DNA of 64,000 nucleotides from Peribolospora baueri (taxonomy: Eukaryota): the NCBI GenBank assembly GCA_029717555.1, contig JAMDHS010000003.1, positions 372,001-436,000 on the forward strand, in the 5' to 3' direction. This document shows positions 5,196-40,884 of this stretch, piece by piece. The notes under the pieces were generated by a model. The model was not told the DNA's origin. It was given only the letters and a program-made list of their open reading frames with translations, and made no database searches. Numbering within the stretch: the stretch's first letter is position 1; each line of letters opens with the position of its first letter. The translations under genes were made by a program, and so were the position numbers.

Positions 5196-6230
5196 CTAAG
5201 CGTTGAAACCCGAGCCCTTGTAGCCTTCCGAGGCAATGCCTATTGTGAGGGGGGAGATGGAGAAACGAGTGAGTGCACGTCGTCCGTGAAATTATCGAGC
5301 AAGACTCCAAGGCCAGCGTCGTCCGGATCGCACTAGACGACTCCAACGGCGATCGCCGTCCGCTGCCAACCACTTGGCTGAGGGGATCGGGTTGGAAAAC
5401 GAGGGATGGCTCACCGCTGATGGGGTCCATCTTCTGCTCCCGGGCCATCTCGTTGGAGGCCTCCTGCCACTCGGAAGTCATCGTCTTGGGCTTCTCCTGA
5501 GCTGTGACATGGGAAGAGAAGAAGAGAATCAAAACGACTATTCGACGTGACGGTGCCAGACAGAAGCAAATCGGTCGCAAGGGCGAATGCCGACTGCCCT
5601 GCACGACCGATAAGGGCGAGGAAAGATGGAAGGCGGCCAAAATACACACCGAAGCTCCTGATGGTGAGGAAGAGCGCGGCGGTAGTGGCGAGGCAGGCTG
5701 CGACGCCGAAAGCCGTCTTCACGCCGGTGCCCGGACCGACGTGGGGCGCACGAGGACCGTGGGGTCCGAAGGAGACAAAATAAGCTAGGGAGACGAGGGT
5801 ATGGAAATGCGCCTAGATCAGTCAAGCCCTCCATGCAAGGAACTTTGCCAATAGACATGAATTGGAGTTGACGGCGGAGCCCATCCTTGCGGGCTGTCGA
5901 AAAGTTGGTGGAAAGGGAGAGAGAGAACTCACCAGCCCTCTTCTCCTCGGAGGAGAGCTCCTTCCAGTCCTTCTTCTGAAGCTCTTCGAGGGTCTTGAAA
6001 ACGTTGTACTGCTCCTCGGTGGAAAGGTTCTTCCACTGCGCCTCGATGTTGCTGATCAGATGTCTCGTCTCAGCAGGCGAGGCTGTGGGTGAGGAGGAAG
6101 GGGCGGAAGACGGAGGTGCGGCGGCGGCGGTGGAGGCGAGGCGCACCGAGGGAACGGCGAAGGCGCGGGCGCTCGTCGCGGGGATAGCGCGCGGCAGTGC
6201 AGTGCGAAGGGCGGCCGCGCGGACGAACAT
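5196..6230 (-). CDS. COX5: Cytochrome c oxidase subunit IV family (fungal Cox5), 4 exons
   Basis: Arg/Ala-rich mitochondrial presequence, then ISNIEAQW...ELQKKDWKELSSEEKRA|AYFVSFGPHGPR, one TM helix, PKTMTSEWQEASNE...KMDPISG|IASEGYKGSGF. Confidence 0.95.
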
Positions 6231-11765: not shown

Positions 11766-13277
11766 CTACTCGCTCTCCTCATCGCTCTCCGCCTGGTCCA
11801 ACCACTCCAAGAACGGACCAGCGCTCTTCCGAACCTTCTTGCTGACCGATTTGTCGACGTACTTGCCACTCACGTGCGTGCCCCACTGTTTGGCCACCTC
11901 CTCGTCCAGCACATCCACCTGATAGAACGCCATGAGCAACTTGGGCACGCCAGTTGGCATGAGTGAGGGATAGGCCTCGCCCACGAGACGCTCGAGACCG
12001 CCGAGAAGCGCCTTCTGGTGCTTCTCCGAAGTGACCATCTGATGAAAAAAGAATCACATGTGATCAATATAAAGACAGTTAGGCATCGACGTCACGGCGT
12101 CCTTTGTGTCCCTCAAAACTAGATCGACTACTCACCTTCTGAAGAACAGCTCCATACTTGGGCACCTCCTTCACAGCTTCCTCGGTGAAAAGGCCCTGGA
12201 CGAGCACCTGCACGGCGCGGTGCTTCTTATCGATGCCGAGCTCCTGCGCCTTCTTGTACACTTCGGCCGACGTGGGAGCGCCGTCTCCGGCGCCCTTAAC
12301 CTTGTGCGCCTCGAGCCACTCTCCGAACTCTTCGTACGGTCCTCCTGCGCCCTCTTCATCATCGTCGCCGAGGACGAGTGCGGACTGCACGCCACCCTCG
12401 AGTGCTTTGACGCGAGCCTTGACGGCTGCCTCGGAGGTGTCCACGCTCCAGTCCTCGTCGCCGCCGTTCTCCTTGGCACGCTGCTCAGCCGTAGGGATCT
12501 CGGCCACCTCGGAGCGTATGCGCTGCGTCAGCTCGTCGTCGCTGCCCGCTTCGTCGGCACCGTCGGCATCACCAGCGCTGGGTCCATCAGCGGCGCCGGG
12601 TGTGTGGTGGCCCTTCTTACCGCCCTTGCCCTTCTTCTTAGGCGGCGGGTTCTTCAAGATGAAAGTGACGAGCTTGTGCCGCATGTCGACGATGGTGCGC
12701 TGGCCGCACGCCTTGCAGTCGCGGATCACGTCGTCCGTTTTGGTCAGAATGAGCTCCGTCTCCGGGTTCTTGCAGCTACCGCACAGCACGAACTTGTCAA
12801 TGAACGTGTCGAGCAGCTCGCGAAGGCGCGTGGCGTCGTGAGCACCATTGACGATGTAACGCTCGTTCTTCTCATCGAACGTCGTCTGGGCGCCCAGCTC
12901 GCAGCCGAAGAATTTGGTGGGGTCTGAGACGAGCCGGGTAAAGTGTGAAAGGAACCGGTTAGGATACTGGCAATAAAGACACGAACGAGCGAACGTGACG
13001 TCGATCATAGCGTATACTCACACGACGGAGGCCGGCTGAGCGACCTGGCAATGTCCGCCATGTTGGGAATGACGGTTTTGATTCCATTGCCTTTGCCCTC
13101 GATCTTGGTCTGCAAGAGGGGCATCCTAGAAGCGTGTACCGCAAGCAGAAACGGAAAGATGTCAGTAGGCGTTAAGTACAACCACTCCAAGCAAAAAAGA
13201 TAAATAAGAGATGATGCCCACCGATAGCGGTAGAACGCATCGGAGATGTCCCTGCGAATGTTAACGACTTGAGCCAT
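11766..13277 (-). CDS. TIF5: Eukaryotic translation initiation factor 5, 4 exons
   Basis: [37 protein letters not shown]...[18 protein letters not shown]...[12 protein letters not shown]...CKACG zinc ribbon. The C-terminal W2 domain ends [19 protein letters not shown] context GCCACCATGG. Confidence 0.97.
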
Positions 13278-32498: not shown

Positions 32499-35400
32499 CT
32501 AGATCGTGAGCTGGTTCCTGACGTGCTGTACCAGGCGCTCGATCTCGGCTGGTCCCCTCATCATCGTGTCCGCCAGACGCGGGTCGCGAAGCGCAATGAT
32601 GAGTGTTTGGAGCAGACCCCACGGGTGCGGGCGGACGGCGAGGATCCGTTCGAGAAGGACCCTAGTGAACTGCTCGTGGATGATGGGGTAGTCGGTCTCG
32701 CCGAAGAGGTAGAGCATAAGACAGCTGAAATAGTGCGTGTGCGCGTTAGGGTAGCGTAGCTGGTTCGTGATCGCGCTGAGGAAGAGATAACGACCTGTGA
32801 ATGAGATAGTAGTGTTAGTGCGTGAGCGATCAGGCCAAAGAAATGACGGCTTTATAAGCCAAGTCTAAACGAGTGAGGACTCACCCTCCGGATCGAGATC
32901 TACTAGCAACTGCTGCATAATGTCGACAGCCGAATCCTGGGCACTGAAGGGGATCAAGCCGTTCGAAGGGGTCGACGGCCGCGCGCGCTCAATCGCCGCG
33001 TTGCCGACGTACACCACCAAGGCGTTGATGAGGGGAATGTTGAATTTGGTCTCGCCTTTGGCGATGTCCGAGTCCCGCACCGACGGACTCAAAACCCTAT
33101 CCCTGAGCGTCGAGAGGAAGACCTGCGGGCCGCGATTCAGGAGGTACTGGTCGAGCGAAGCCTTGAACTCGGCAGGCTGGAGAGCGGAGACGTAGTCCGA
33201 TAGGATCGTGGGGGATTCGTTCATCTCCACAACGTACTCCGGCTTGAGCTGCGACAAGAAAGGGTCCGGGAGGCGGCGATCACGAGGAAATGCGCTGAGG
33301 ACGAGGTTGCGAAGCTGAATGCACGAGGTGGGCACTAGGTCGCAAAGGCTGTGGTGATAGGCCGAGAGGAACTCGGGGAAATCATGCAGGAGCACGAGTA
33401 AGATGCGAAGGGCACCCTTGTACAAGCTCCGTGAGGTTTCGCGCAGTTCGGCTGTGCGGAGGAAAGGCGCCAAGAACTTGAAGAGCGAAGACAGCGGGCG
33501 GTGGAAAGGCGCCCAACCCTCGCAATTATCAGCCAAGAGGAGCTTGGGCATGAACAGGCGGTGGGAGATGAGAGCCATCCAGGAGAAGGTGAAGCCTGGG
33601 AAGAAAGAAGGCTGGAGCGTGTTGAGGGTGTTGCTGATGGCGACGAGGCAGTGGAAGTAGGCTGAGTGGAGGTTGCCCTCGATGAGATGAAGGTCGTGAA
33701 GGAGGCTCGAGAAGAAGCGGAAGAAGGGCTTTTGCTGGAAGTTGGTTCCGAGCTCCTCGTGCGACTGGGCCAAGACCAAGACGACAATGGAGAGGATTTT
33801 GGTAAGGTAGTGCACCTTGGCCTGCTCATTGTTCACTCCGGTAGGGTCGGCGTGATACTTGATCATGAGGACCACCAACTTGGAGAAGGCGTCGATGGGC
33901 GAAAATATGCCAGTAGCGAGGGTGCCCCCGGTGGCCTTCTGCTTAATGTAGCTGTCCACGCCGACTTCGGTGCAAACGCGAAAGAAGAGCGAAGAAATTT
34001 CTTCTCCCTTGAGGATGCCCTGCTCTTGCAACTGTGTAACGAAGCTGATGAACGACTTCTCCGAAGACGGCGAGTGCTGGAACAGGCGGACCCATTCGGC
34101 AAAGCAGTAAGCCAGCTGCTCGCGCAATTCCGCATTCGCCTGAGCGTGCTTGTCAATGGGAGTGGCAGATAACTGAAGCTCGTCGAGGAGCTGGTCGGCC
34201 GCCTCGGTGCTCTTGCCGCGCTGCACAGCTCGAACGATAGCCTCAATAGAGTTGGCCAACTGGGCGCGGGTGGCGCACGCGGGCTCGCGGAGGCATTCAA
34301 GCGCCAGCTTCGCCGTGAAGTCGATCACGCTCGGGCGCATGTCGCGGGCGATGAACTTGGCGAGCTGAACGTCCTGCTCCACGATGTTGATCAAGCCAGC
34401 CCGAATGAGGGCGACGGTAACCTGTACGTTGAACTTGCGCTCGTCCTCGGCGTAGATAAGCCAAGCAGTCACCTCCTTGGCCACCTTGACCGAGACCTCG
34501 CAGAGGCGCTCGAGGAGAATGACGTACACCTCACGTGCCAACGCCGACTCGGACTTGTACAACAGCTGCACGACCTTCTGCGAGAACGCCAGGGCCGTTT
34601 CATCCCTACTCACGCTCTGGGCAGCGATAAGCGGCACTTGACGCAAGACAAGGCGAATGTCGTGATTCTCGGGAACAGCCATGAGTGTTGCTGTAGTCGA
34701 CTGTGACAGAAGCTTCTCCAGCTCGGCAATGTACTGGTGGAATTTTTCCAGACTCTGCTGAGCAGTCATTAACCCCGGCGTACCCGTCACCGACCCGTCC
34801 AAGCCAACCTCGCCGGGCACAGGCGACGAAGGCGTGAACGATCCAGTCAGATCGGCGCGGCCAGCAATCCCGGAGTAGCCAAAGGATGAAGGCGTTGCAC
34901 GCTGTTCAGCAACGGCAGCAGCGCCAGCTCCACCAGGAGGAGAAGCCTGACTGGGAAGCTTGCCAAAGTCCTCATAGACACGGAGCTGTTGGGAATGCAA
35001 GCCGTTGGGCTTAAGACGGAGCAGGTCGGGCAAGTTGGCGCCATAGTGCGAGGCCGAGAGTGCGGCACTATCCCAGTAGAAGCCGTTGGAGCGGCTGCGA
35101 TGTTCGCGGCGGCTGGCGTATGCATCTTGAAGACCGTGGTCGACCTCCGGTATAGCCTTCTCCATCGCCGCTTTCTCGATCACGGAGCACGCCAAGTCGA
35201 TATTGTCGCCCATGATGAACAAAAGTGCCTGTTCGGGTACGTTTTGCTGCGAGAGATGAAAGGAGAACCGCCAATTTCGACAGTCAGAAGCAGTAACATC
35301 TCACTGTAACAAGTGGGCAGGCGACTCACTTCAGTGAAACCGTTCTGAACGAGTAAAGACTTGACGTGGCTGAGCATGCTTATCCTCAGGGGCTCCTTGC

Positions 35401-38400
35401 ATGTCACCATCGCCAAGCTGCCCGCAAGGTTCTGGGCCATGTGATGGGCCGCCTTGCGCATCTTCTCCTCGTTACCCTCCATGGCGAAGTCCTTGAGAAC
35501 GAGCTCCCGCGTCGATATAGAGGCGATGGTCACCGAGCGCTCCACGACCGGCGCAATGATCTGTCGTATGAATGAACCGTCGTCCGCTTTCAGAGTCCAT
35601 ATACCAGAACCACACAAAACCTCTCGATTAAAACTCACCTCGCGGATGGCCGACGCGATGGCCGCATGGACAAGCCTCTTGAGAGTGGGGTTGTTGGCGA
35701 ACATCGTCAGACCAGGGTTGAAGGTAATGTAGTTGGCCAGGTTGGCCAAAACGCTGGTGAGCGAGTCGCCATACGGAACAGCGGCGGCGCCAGCGCCCGT
35801 CTGTCCGCCCACGCCGGAAAACGGCAAGGTGGTTGCAGCACCGGCCCCGGCGGATACCGCCCCAGCAGCGCCAGTCGTCGTCGTCGGACCCATGGCCCCA
35901 ACGCCGGCCGTCCCTTGAGCCTGACCGGCGTACTCAGCCTGAGCGCCGGTCATTGACAAACGCTCCAACTCATGCACCAACTCGGGTCTGCCGTCCGGCG
36001 CTGCCGATCCGGCGGGCGGCAGCAGTCCAACGGGTGGCCTCGAGCGAAGGATCATCGTGGGTCTGATGTCCTCTAAGGTCACATTGAGGGCCTTGCAGAG
36101 CACCTCAATTTCAAACTTGAGGTTCAGCTTCAGCTCGGCAAACTGATAAAGCTCGACGAGAAGGCGAATGACGCCCATGAGCCAAGGATTCGGAGGCTGG
36201 AAAACGCTACTCTTGGCACTATGCTCCAACACCTTGCACACGAACGGGATGGCGACGATGAGTCGGCCGCGGTCGTAGCCCTGGATGAGGAGATCCTTGA
36301 AGGCAATGTTTTTGTGCAGGATCGGCTTGTTCCTCGCGAGCGTCAGACCACCAAGCCAGCTGCCCAAGTTCTTGAGCAACGTGCGCTCCGTCGTACTCTG
36401 CACCGTCTTCTCCGAGTTGAGCAACACCTTCACCTTGGCAAGAGTCTCATTAAGGATGTGTTTGAGGAGTGGCGCCTTGTCGAGTAAGTCTAGCAGCTGC
36501 ATGTACAGCGCGTGATTGTTGGGCTCGATGCTCACGCGCTGCAAGACGAGGTAGTTGGAAAACCAGCGACAGTGCTCGTCGCGGAGCCACTCTTTGAGGT
36601 CGTCCGTCTTGTCACGCACATTCGACGGAGCGAGGTTATTGATGATGAACAGAATTTTGTCTGACACGTCCTCGTCCGGCATCTCTGCCGGGTCCAGTTC
36701 GGCCTCGTACGCCGGGTCGAGATTGACGGCGGTGAAGACAGGCCGCTGGGCCGGGTCATCTGCTTGCTCAACGCCTGCAAGCAACTCCTGCCCCGTCGCC
36801 TGTCCGCCTCCCTCCGTTCCGACGCCGTTGGCGCCCTGAGCCAACGAAGCGCGTACCACGTTGGCAATCTCCGGATGCGTTTGGAGAAGATGGGGGATGG
36901 CCAATAGCGCCTGAGCCAACTGCGGCCACTCAGGCAACCGGCCTTGGAAGCGTAGGAGCGCCTGTACGCCGAACCGGAACATGTTGCTCTCGGGCGGCGT
37001 ACGAAGGGCGTCCAATACGTAGCGAATGGCGATGCCGAGGGGAATGTAGTCAACAAGCTGGTACTGGATGATGCTGCCAAAGAGGATGCCGGTCATGGCA
37101 AGCTCCTTGGGCGGGTAGTACATCTCAAACCAGCGATACTCGTCGAAGAGGGTGTGGAGCATGCAAGCGAACACTTCGTGGTCCCTCGGGTCCTCCGAGG
37201 CCTTGGTGTTCTGAAGGAGGCAGATCACGTCGTCGATGCTGATCTTTTCCTCATACATGCGCTGATAATAGCCGTCCACCTCGCTGTGCACCTCAGCCGA
37301 GAAGCTAACAACGCTCAGACCGGGCTCTTGGTCGGCAGAGTTCGGTGCCAGGTTCATGAGGCGTGGGTGAAGTTGCAAGCAGAGATTGCGAATCTGCTTG
37401 AAGGTCTCAATCTCCTCGGCACTCAGTGCCTCTCCGTTGGCTCGAATGACCCGCAAGAAGATTGCCACCGTCTGGGCGGTAAGGGGCATGTTGTTCTGCT
37501 CAGCTTGCGGATCCTGCTTGGCGAGATCGGCACGCGCTTTGAAGTCGAGGAACTCGAGCGTGGCACGTACAAAGGCGGTACCGTGCTTGTTGAACATGTC
37601 TTGGAGCCATTTGTCGAGGTTGAGGTACTCCCTGCGACTCGCCAGCGCCGCAATGTCCAGGGCGAACTCAAACGGTCTGACGTCAAGAACCCGGTCGAGA
37701 ATCTTCAAGTCCTGGGCTACGTCCAAGAGCCGCGTGACGTTCATGGCGTTCTCGGCATAGAAGTCGCGGAAGGTTTGGATGAGAAAGGCCTCATCCACCT
37801 GCCAGATCCGCATGAAGACGAGCTGGTGCGAAGGGTGACCGGCGAAGAACATGGAGAGCAATCTGGACGCGAGTTCGGAATGGATGACGTTCCAAGGCTT
37901 GGGAACTTGCACCAGGCCCATCAACACCAGCTCGGCGCTCGCTTTGACGGCCTTGTCCAGAAGCTCGGTCACGATCAGCTTGATGTCGTTCGCCGACGTG
38001 GCGGCTGCCTGCGCGAGTGTCGCGATGAGGTCGAGCGAGTTCCAAGGGCTACCTTGGACGCCAGCCGCGAGGGCCTTGATGGTCGGACTGGCGTTGCCCA
38101 TGTCGTCCACGGTGACGATACGTCTGCCGGGAAGGTTGACGAAATTGAAAACCTCGGGCGGGAGCGTCAGCAAGGCATCGATGAATCGAAGTTGCCGAAT
38201 CTGGATATCCCAATGTCCCCACAACCCTGCCACTGCCGGAGTCGGATCGCCCTCGCGCGAAGCGGTGGCGAGTGTGACCGCAAACGCTTCCAAGGCAAGG
38301 TCGTCCATGGGCAATGACCTGTCCGGACTTCCAAAGGCCCTGACCACCTCCGACCACGCCACAGGGGCCTGGAAGCTGCTCAGAGCCTGTACCAGCGTAC

Positions 38401-39938
38401 CAAAGTCGCACACCGCGCCGCCGCCCACCACCTCCGCGGGAACCTCGAAAAGAGCCGAGAGCATGTCCACCACAGCACCAGCGTCTGGCGGCGTGGCATC
38501 GGTGTAACCGAAGCGCGCGAGCAGAGATCGGACGACGTCCACGTTCGAGGACGCCTGCGGGCCGACTTCGACAAGAAACTGAACGAAAGTCTTGGCTGGG
38601 TTGATCCTGTGAGGTGATAGAGGAAGACAAAATGATTCAGCATCAGGGAAGAGGCGAAGTGAAGGGGAGCAACAGAAAGCGGTAGCACTCACCTAACGCT
38701 CGGCAAAGCCTGCTGCAAAATCTGCGCAAACTGCTCGTGTCCTGTCCTTTGTACCACCGCGTTCACCAATGCCCTCCGCTGGGCGGGATCCAGCACCTGT
38801 TGAGGCATGCCAGACGTGGCTATGAGATTATTGCCATTGTCATTGGACGTGTCGGAGAGCAGATTCGACAGGATCTTGGCGAGCTGTGCCGGTGTTAGGT
38901 CGACGTCCCCGCCTTGTCCTCCGGGCTGGACATCAAGGGAGAGCGACGCCGAAGGAATTCGTAAGGCGTCGAGCGCCGCTTCCAGTTCCGAAACTATCAT
39001 GCTGGCCGCCTGCGGGTAGAGCGCCTCTCTTCTGTGCGAGGAAGAGACGAGCGCGCTCGCAAGGATGACCCTCTCGAGGGGAGAGAGGCCTATCTTTTCG
39101 ACAAAACGTTGGAGAACAAAGGTGCGGAAGACCTCGCCTTCGCCCCTATCGACGGCTTCGCGGAAGCGCTCGGCGAGAAAAGGATCCCGGGCGATTCGCG
39201 GGACCTCGGAGAGGAGGAGACGTACGGAAAGGACAGCCGCGTCGGGTTTGACGACTTTCTTGCGGGGAGAGGAGGGAGCGGAGAGCTGAGGAGCGGAGGC
39301 GATGAGGAGTCGTCGGATGAAGTGAAGGTAGGTTTCCGTTCCGTGTTGATCGCAGAGCTGCAAAAAGGGGTATCGGTCGAGGTCGCGAGAACACATCAGC
39401 GACGACCGGGTCGTCGGAGAGACCAGGGAGAGAAGAAAAACGGAGAACGTACAGATCTGATCTCAAGTTGATTTCGTTCAAAGTTCTCCTCCGTCAGGAT
39501 GGAGAGCAGAAAGACGATCTGTGATGTGCGAAATAGACGGAATGAGCGAATGGTCCATCATGCGCTCACCCGTCCCCATCCAGTCTCAAACAGTCTCGCT
39601 CGGCTGTGGTATGTCTTGCGCTTGAAAGCTGGACCAATACCATAGAAACTTTCGGGAAGAAAATAAAAGCTCACCTGGGCTTTGACTATGGTCAACAAAC
39701 TGCTCGAGTCCTTTCCACTCCCGACACTGCTACTACTGCCACTACCGCCGCCGCCGCCGCCGGATCCGGAAAAGCCGGCTCCGCTACCAGCCGCCGCCGT
39801 GGCTGTCGCCGTCGTGGCTGACCTTGCCGTCTCTGCAGCTGCCGCCGCGGCGCTGCGTCCTGGTGGGGACGTGGACGTGTTCGCCGCGCCCGATCCGCCG
39901 GGTGCGCCAGATACCGCTGCTGCCGCCGTCGTGTCCGT
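32499..39938 (-). CDS. NOT1: CCR4-NOT scaffold subunit Not1, about 7 exons, apparent non-AUG (ACG) start
   Basis: IVKAQ|IVFLLSILTEENF; ALASRREYLNLDKWL; CMLHTLFDEYRWF..YPPKEL; DKILFIINNL; RVSIEPNNH; LLKNLGSWLG; FQPPNPWL; LKLNLKFEIEVLCK; APVVERSV; LVLLHDFPEFL; RPHPWGLL. The 5' coordinate is inferred. Confidence 0.95.
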
Positions 39939-40884
39939 GGCGACGCCTTGGTGGGGAAGCCCGAAGGCTCAAAGGGAGAGAAAAGGGAGAAGGGAGCGAG
40001 GCAAGAACGTGTAGGGGGCGTTACAGATGCCACGCGAGGGAATGAGCGGTCAAGGAGTGGGGGAAGGCGGGGGGGCGGGATTGGGGGCGCGCCGATGGTG
40101 CGAGTCGAGGACGCCGAGGAGGACGTCGATGTTGAAGTGGCGGAGGACGATAATGATAGTTAGGAAGAGGGAAGGAGGGAAGACGAGGGTGAGGGAGGGG
40201 GGAAGGAGGACGAGGTGGGTGGAGGGGGGACGAGGAGGGATGATGGCGATGGAGGATGGATGGAGATGGATGGATGGATGGCAACGGCTGACTGCTCGCT
40301 GAGAACTGACGAGTCGTGTCTGTTGAGGGATACACGCCGCAGCACGACAAGGCAGCTACCGCAGCGGCTCTCATCGTCCCACGCTCTTGTGACTGCACAC
40401 AGGCGCGATCGCGTGGCCGGCGATGAATGCGCCTTTCCAAGTCGCCATGTGTGGTCGGTCAGATGTCGAGATCACATTTTCACTCCCCGTTGTAGCCATA
40501 TATGTGATACGATAGCTTGTTGGATCGTTAGTTGGGACGATACGCGAAACGTGATGTACACGGAAGCGCCCGGCAAGAAAAGGAACAATGGACGACGGCG
40601 CGAACCAGAGGCGGCAGGACGAACGAACGACGGACGGAGAAGGAACGTATGAAAAGTGAAATGCAGCCCCAGTCCGCATGTTGAAGGTCCAAAAACGAGA
40701 CTGGAAAGCTGGAAAGGCGAGGCAAATGACGGAGCTGAGACAGAACTCGACGAGAGATTGAGGAGAGAAAGGACGGTCGAAATGCTAGTGAAGGGGAGTG
40801 CAACGGCAGCTCTGTTGGATTTCGGAGGTGCAAATGCGACGTGACCGAAGGAAAAATCAACGCACGGCCGGCGACGTTGTCATA

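Follow-up and report, generated by a model that had tools for sequence, protein, structure and literature searches.

In a 64,000-nucleotide stretch of the Peribolospora baueri genome (NCBI GenBank assembly GCA_029717555.1, contig JAMDHS010000003.1, positions 372,001 to 436,000; hereafter the window, with positions counted from its first letter), the minus strand carries a gene identified by its domains and homologues as NOT1 (CDC39), which encodes the scaffold of the CCR4-NOT deadenylase complex. The conserved N-terminal domain (N-domain) of its product is encoded upstream of the first AUG of the spliced messenger RNA (mRNA), and we regard it as an evenly balanced proposition, drawn from the sequence of one genome, that full-length Not1 starts at a near-cognate codon at or near the ACG at 39938. 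The exact start codon is a best guess only, ACG 39938 being most likely the one used. The elements of the 5' region on which this reading turns are the following:

40372 to 40374, minus strand: nearest upstream ATG, in another frame; it opens a 117-codon Pro/Ser/His-rich open reading frame (ORF) ending at TAA 40023-40021
39939 to 40371, minus strand: ATG-free pyrimidine-rich leader of 433 nucleotides, within which transcription would start
39969 to 39971, minus strand: in-frame TGA closing the NOT1 frame upstream
39936 to 39938, minus strand: candidate start codon ACG, context GTCGCC-ACG-G, the first in-frame near-cognate codon past the TGA
39675 to 39938, minus strand: coding part of exon 1, 88 codons, a putative Ala/Gly/Ser/Thr-rich extension ending in LLTIVKAQ
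39519 to 39674, minus strand: intron 1, 156 nucleotides, GTGAGC...CAG
39453 to 39518, minus strand: exon 2, 22 codons, 80% identity to an Agaricomycete Not1
39358 to 39452, minus strand: intron 2, 95 nucleotides, GTACGT...CAG
38693 to 39357, minus strand: exon 3, the body of the Not1 N-domain
38998 to 39000, minus strand: earliest AUG of the spliced mRNA when all frames are considered, in frame with NOT1, context GCCAGC-ATG-A; a short isoform without the N-domain may start here
38607 to 38692, minus strand: intron 3, 86 nucleotides, GTGAGT...CAG
32577 to 38606, minus strand: remaining NOT1 coding exons, from the HEAT domain through the Not1 domain (3' limit approximate)

Coding sequence upstream of the first AUG

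The exons and introns at the 5' end were delimited by inspection of the sequence, together with tblastn alignments of two homologues. Identity to Not1 of the Agaricomycete Botryobasidium amounts to 80% in exon 2, 45% in exon 3 and 49-51% in the remaining protein (tblastn), and among basidiomycete Not1 N-termini in general the identity of exon 3 ranges from 45 to 56%. An exhaustive HMMER search with exon 3 retrieved 85 proteins at E <= 0.001, the best of them with 49-56% identity. Judged by these alignments, conservation in the N-domain is on a par with that in the rest of Not1. Between the ACG and the first AUG lie 229 codons with neither a stop codon nor a frameshift, interrupted by three introns with canonical ends, and the spliced translation is open and aligns with basidiomycete Not1 N-termini from LLTIVKAQ onward. 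The conserved N-domain, comprising IVKAQIVFLLS and the helices that follow, is present by alignment; no Pfam model matched this conserved N-terminal part. Because the region upstream of the first AUG is conserved, open and divided by canonical introns, it appears to be translated. In animals, the N-domain of Not1 is the docking site of NOT10/NOT11 (PMC3594282).

Homologous proteins begin in the ordinary way. Methionine is the first residue in 130 of the 132 full-length homologues, and the conserved motif lies 9-74 residues past it (median 11) in 101 of them; a metagenome locus with 54% identity likewise has an ordinary ATG 34 codons before TIVKAQ. Compared with these homologues and this locus, the window NOT1 is therefore a true exception.

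On the minus strand, no ATG occurs in any of the three frames from 40371 to 39644. The flanking ATGs lie at 40374-40372 and at 39643-39641, the latter within intron 1, and the resulting gap of 731 nucleotides is the longest in the window, whose two strands together have 1716 ATG-to-ATG gaps (median 48 nucleotides). A preliminary description of this DNA had reported that the minus strand holds no ATG from the first donor up to 40371, and a complete list of the minus-strand ATGs between 41000 and 39400, none of them in the gap, bears this out. After splicing, the mRNA is free of ATG for 1120 nucleotides counted from 40371 and for 687 nucleotides counted from the ACG. Windows of equal length in exons 4-5 always contain ATGs (0 of 1527 are ATG-free; minimum 3 ATGs). 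The AUG at 39000, 229 codons past the ACG, has A at -3. The same description had placed the next in-frame ATG at about 39000 and stated that starting there would remove conserved sequence; the codon occupies 39000-38998, and the entire N-domain would be lost.

The candidate ACG has G at -3 and G at +4, a strong context, and exactly 87 codons separate it from the CAG (Gln) at 39677-39675 that ends exon 1, whose 3' border at 39675 reads CAG|GTGAGC. Position (39938-39936), context and distance all match what had been described. An in-frame TGA does close the frame upstream, as claimed, although it had been placed at 39968-39970, one base away from its actual position at 39971-39969.

The sequence changes character close to the ACG. 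Purine content rises from 0.11-0.19 to 0.5-0.6 at about 39960-39950, and between 39960 and 39950 the share of C at the first codon position, counted in the NOT1 frame, drops from about 0.5 to <=0.08. Three-base periodicity in this frame begins at about 39950, just upstream of the ACG. From 39938 to 39699 its chi-square is 52.9 (P 1e-9), compared with 26.3 for a 240-nucleotide stretch of exon 3 and 16.1 for the adjoining leader. The threonine codons of exon 1 are ACG in 9 of 11 cases, whereas ACG accounts for 37% of those in the other parts of the gene (binomial P 0.003).

The CT-rich leader abuts the ACG in the same way as CT-rich tracts abut the ATGs of two other minus-strand genes of the window, eIF5, which starts at 13277 with GCCACC-ATG-G, and a COX gene, which starts at 6230 with CCACC-ATG-T. 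On the basis of only these two genes, a strong Kozak-like consensus is suggested for the genome. The GCC/ACC-NNN-G context that had been attributed to the AUGs of eIF5 and COX5 is thus found in full at eIF5, whereas the COX gene departs from it in having T instead of G at +4.

Identity and structure of the NOT1 gene

NOT1 occupies the minus strand from about 39940 to 32500 of the window. Pfam domains PF16418, PF16417, PF16415, PF12842, PF25097/PF23590 and PF04054 were all found above the curated cut-offs, in the order expected for Not1/CNOT1: HEAT, TTP-binding, CAF1-binding, DUF3819, connector/ARM and C-terminal Not1. An exon of 1092 residues (35330-38605) encodes the CNOT1 HEAT, TTP-binding and CAF1-binding domains and DUF3819, and the exon after it encodes DUF3819, the connector/ARM repeat and the Not1 domain (Pfam). 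With the large exon as query, 232 full-length Not1 homologues were found at E <= 1e-30. On this homology, the gene is NOT1, the scaffold of CCR4-NOT. The description of NOT1 as essential is taken from other organisms.

A further intron lies near 35329-35256. The four NOT1 introns have the donors GTGAGC, GTACGT, GTGAGT and GTGAGT, and their acceptors are CAG. Toward the 3' end, a tblastn match to the Not1 C-terminus (32577-32868, minus strand) crosses one in-frame stop, so that an additional small intron near 32865 is probable. Directly upstream of NOT1, also on the minus strand, lies a Mo25-like gene (Pfam PF08569; 40885-41526 and beyond), whose stop codon at about 40887-40885 leaves about 950 nucleotides for its own 3' end and the promoter and leader of NOT1.

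Weighing of alternative explanations

Several observations weigh against a start at ACG 39938. The ATG-free stretch is only modestly unlikely in itself, as 2.1% of 2000 dinucleotide-preserving shuffles of 40371-39644 are ATG-free (mean 3.1 ATGs). Exon 1 offers 14 in-frame near-cognate codons including ACG 39938, seven of them flanked by a purine at -3 and G at +4; the in-frame ACGs farther on, at 39929, 39830, 39812 and 39800, share the context of ACG 39938, and AAG 39713 and ATA 39689, both with a purine at -3 and G at +4, lie near the position of the Met in most orthologues. All three frames are largely open across the extension, and its codon-usage log-odds are about -0.1 to -0.6 in the NOT1 frame versus about 0 in another frame. 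No unusually stable structure lies downstream of the ACG, and 149 of 200 shuffles fold at least equally well. Between the ACG and AUG 39000, about 50% of synonymous resamplings likewise contain no out-of-frame ATG (P(0) 0.50-0.54), and no internal Met was seen among the first 170 residues of two Agaricomycete orthologues inspected by eye. The nearest relatives available for comparison (protein searches, HMMER with exon 3, metagenome scan) are only 57-59% identical, with 49-56% identity in the N-domain.

Some candidate signals were rejected. Codon-usage log-odds were discarded as a locator of the coding start, being uninformative or contrary in a low-complexity extension. A hairpin downstream of the ACG that would boost a weak start was set aside on its minimum free energy of -46.7 kcal/mol compared with a shuffle mean of -49.0 kcal/mol (z = +0.64). 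Selection against out-of-frame ATGs before AUG 39000 was likewise dismissed, their absence being expected from the protein sequence at the resampled P(0). The absence of Met from the N-domain is not special, because the two Agaricomycete orthologues lack it too. The ATG-free layout from the ACG to AUG 39000 is permissive, not diagnostic; by analogy, it matches that of known genes producing two isoforms from a near-cognate codon and an AUG by leaky scanning. The preliminary description had not remarked on this layout. As a separate observation, codon usage looks coding-like in the NOT1 frame at 40170-40110 of the minus strand (mean log-odds +0.8 to +1.1), upstream of two in-frame stops; the stretch contains repeated GTCCTC units, and its score is probably a repeat effect.

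A normal AUG might instead be supplied by one or two unrecognised upstream exons spliced to exon 1, in which case the pyrimidine stretch before 39968/39947 would be the tail of an intron. The ATG at 40374 does not serve as an unspliced start, as it lies in another frame and its ORF is terminated by TAA 40023-40021, and an intron GTAACG(40024)...GAG(39968) that would remove this stop lands in the wrong frame. An enumeration of single-intron models nevertheless returned 283 GT..AG combinations from five upstream ATGs with an open in-frame product, and this also counts against a near-cognate start. Such products arise from the ATGs at 40679, 40499, 40448 and 40374, several of them ending at AG 39969-39968 or 39948-39947 after a long pyrimidine tract. 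The switch in composition at about 39950 would fit an intron-exon border equally well, and Tilletia annotators likewise used spliced upstream mini-exons for NOT1. The quality of the splice sites speaks against this arrangement. None of the 283 combinations pairs a NOT1-type donor with a CAG or pyrimidine-tract acceptor, and no GTRNGT donor occurs in 40600-39675. The single GTRNGY donor (40400) and GTGGGA (40382), which look canonical, are out of frame at the pyrimidine-tract acceptors 39968 and 39947 and come into frame only with the GAG/AAG acceptors 39830 and 39710, inside the periodic region. The donors that do reach the pyrimidine-tract acceptors in frame are GTCAGT, GTCAGC, GTCCTC, GTCTTC, GTCACA, GTGAAA, GTATCA, GTATCG, GTGTAC and GTTCGT. 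They would pair with GAG or AAG acceptors, compared with CAG in the known NOT1 introns, and the introns would be 145-678 nucleotides long, compared with 86-156 nucleotides. In addition, eIF5 and the COX gene have a similar CT-rich tract immediately before their ATGs. The preliminary statement that ATG 40374 could not be spliced in frame is therefore wrong as arithmetic, given the 283 solutions, but holds once the quality of the splice sites is weighed, and we consider an upstream exon unlikely.

The ACG could also be, or have been until recently, an ordinary ATG, the C at 39937 being either an assembly error or a start-loss mutation of the strain that is tolerated by means of the weak ACG and a short protein from AUG 39000. 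A single T-to-C change is all that separates GCC-ATG-G after a CT-rich leader from the present sequence, and statistics give little sign that the gene has long been adapted to a weak start. The assembly looks accurate, however, in that more than 2000 NOT1 codons are read without a frameshift and with one in-frame stop only, at the probable further intron, and the other genes checked are intact. A single error at exactly 39937 would be rare a priori, and the over-use of ACG for Thr (9/11, P 0.003) would be left unexplained by a very recent mutation, so that we give this explanation little credence. C-to-U editing of ACG to AUG was considered as well and set aside; we know of no such editing of fungal nuclear start codons.

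The two remaining explanations, both of which we find very improbable, place the start farther downstream. In one of them, translation would begin at a non-AUG codon close to the motif (AAG 39713, TTG 39698/39695 or ATA 39689), and the extension would be an untranslated leader rich in trinucleotide repeats. The median distance of 11 residues between Met and motif in 101 homologues would suit such a start: AAG 39713 lies 8 codons before ATA 39689, the Ile codon with which the IVKAQ motif begins, and is followed by DSSS, which is reminiscent of the MD.SS at the start of Agaricomycete Not1; both codons combine a purine at -3 with G at +4, and the codon-usage scores of the extension are not coding-like. 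Scanning ribosomes, however, would meet nine in-frame ACGs earlier, periodicity in the NOT1 frame sets in at about 39950 and not at 39713, and AAG and AUA are among the weakest near-cognate codons. In the other, only the short protein from AUG 39000 would be made, and the N-domain exons, silenced not long ago, would persist as a relic in the role of a spliced 5' leader. This AUG is indeed the first of the spliced mRNA and has A at -3, and the annotated Not1 proteins of Sporisorium, Violaceomyces, Ceraceosorus and three other relatives start just before the same helix, without the N-domain. The relic would nevertheless need to be very young, as the N-domain is conserved like the rest of the protein and has retained 229 codons free of stops and frameshifts and three intact introns; moreover, a 1120-nucleotide leader would be far longer than the leader stretches read before the ATGs of eIF5 and the COX gene.

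Proposed model of NOT1 initiation

With the sequence layout, the identity of the gene and the conservation of the N-domain established, we infer the transcription start, the use of the ACG and the short form. According to the near-cognate reading, the mRNA would begin inside the CT-rich ATG-free leader, downstream of 40372, and full-length Not1 would be translated from a near-cognate codon decoded by the initiator transfer RNA (tRNA). ACG 39938 is the likeliest codon, because in the NOT1 frame a scanning ribosome would come upon it before any other, and because it is flanked by a purine at -3 and G at +4. The later in-frame ACGs at 39929, 39830, 39812 and 39800 may contribute to initiation. 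Ribosomes that bypass the weak start would meet no AUG in any frame for 687 nucleotides of spliced mRNA and would then reach the in-frame AUG 39000, producing from the same mRNA a short Not1 without the N-domain. As this first AUG is in frame, such a short form is possible besides the long one.

Upstream of the leader, an ORF of 25 codons starts at ATG 40448 (A at -3, G at +4), and its TGA overlaps ATG 40374 (ATGA); a transcript starting upstream of 40448 would turn the ORFs of both ATGs into upstream ORFs of NOT1.

Extended to the whole lineage, the model becomes more tentative, and we regard it as doubtful: full-length Not1 would have no AUG at all, a long form with the docking domain would start at the ACG and a short form at AUG 39000, and the ratio of the two would be set by start-codon stringency. 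A dependence of Not1 abundance on the stringency exerted by eIF1/eIF5, which the preliminary description had raised, is speculation derived from the general model of near-cognate initiation.

As the protein that keeps the CCR4-NOT deadenylase assembled, Not1 bears on mRNA decay throughout the cell through its dosage and domain make-up. If the weak ACG were the sole route to the full-length protein, the ratio of full-length to truncated Not1 would vary with how faithfully start codons are selected, and the control of translation initiation would be linked to the control of mRNA decay. Gene finders would then truncate or mis-splice NOT1, as the disordered Tilletia models suggest already happens in relatives.

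NOT1 5' ends in related smut fungi

Short annotated forms of Not1 occur in six Ustilaginomycotina clusters. In Sporisorium, Violaceomyces, Ceraceosorus and three other relatives, the annotated protein begins with MxNG, just before the helix that follows the Met at 39000 of the window, while the Thecaphora frezii model has the same MVNG at an internal position, with the N-domain preceding it. The short Ustilago-type Not1 may be real, or it may be a truncated annotation of genes whose N-domain has no usable ATG.

For Tilletia, 18 gene models of NOT1 (17 of them complete) in four clusters have 12 different N-termini, among them two short forms (MAGTAT) and several spliced mini-exons (MWN, MLFSLP) that we regard as invented. 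Conservation between the Tilletia species begins at TTAD (Thr-Thr), with no conserved Met, and a THTHTHT stretch resembling a dinucleotide repeat lies upstream of TTAD. These annotations hint at an unconventional 5' end of NOT1 throughout the smut subphylum. The same AUG-less layout may be present there, which would explain both the internal-looking Met of the Ustilago type and the disorder of the Tilletia N-termini.

Comparison with known near-cognate starts

Near-cognate initiation with leaky scanning is well established, also in basidiomycetes. In Cryptococcus, the leucyl-tRNA synthetase (LeuRS) that serves both the cytoplasm and the mitochondria starts at ACG (AUU) in the context gccACGAUU, and a downstream AUG gives the second isoform, an arrangement termed 'DualNCC' (PMC7049704). 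Like the window NOT1, it is a basidiomycete gene with a gcc-ACG context and a near-cognate codon upstream of an in-frame AUG, which leaky scanning would reach. The LeuRS extension, however, is a short mitochondrial targeting signal seen by ribosome profiling (PMC7049704), whereas the part of NOT1 upstream of its AUG, as read from the sequence, comprises 229 codons and takes in a folded, conserved domain of a scaffold protein of the cytoplasm.

The cpc-1 gene of Neurospora crassa has an extension started at conserved ACG, CUG and AUU codons, one ACG being conserved in 98 of 100 species (PMC5487733). Like the window NOT1, it has conserved coding sequence lying in frame ahead of the first AUG, with several near-cognate candidates and no AUG. 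In contrast, the AUG-started product of cpc-1 is the main and complete protein, while that of NOT1 would lose a conserved domain, and conservation of the near-cognate codons was demonstrated for cpc-1 (PMC5487733), whereas the window NOT1 is known from a single genome. In Ustilago maydis, which belongs to the subphylum nearest to the window NOT1, the peroxisomal isoform of Pgd1 was shown experimentally to start at AGG AUU (PMC7214817). This non-AUG start differs from that proposed here in its codons, in the short targeting-signal extension it produces and in yielding a minor isoform.

A parallel for a complete protein without an AUG start is human EIF4G2/DAP5, which is translated only from GUG, a start that is proven and conserved across vertebrates, while the window case comes from one genome. 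Our search of open-access full text returned nothing on a non-AUG start of NOT1, CNOT1 or CDC39. In the known fungal cases (LeuRS, Pgd1 and CPC1), the near-cognate start supplies a short signal or an optional extension, and the protein made from the AUG is already complete, whereas the conserved domain of NOT1 would itself depend on the near-cognate start. What would be new here is the gene, NOT1, and the size of the part that depends on a weak start.

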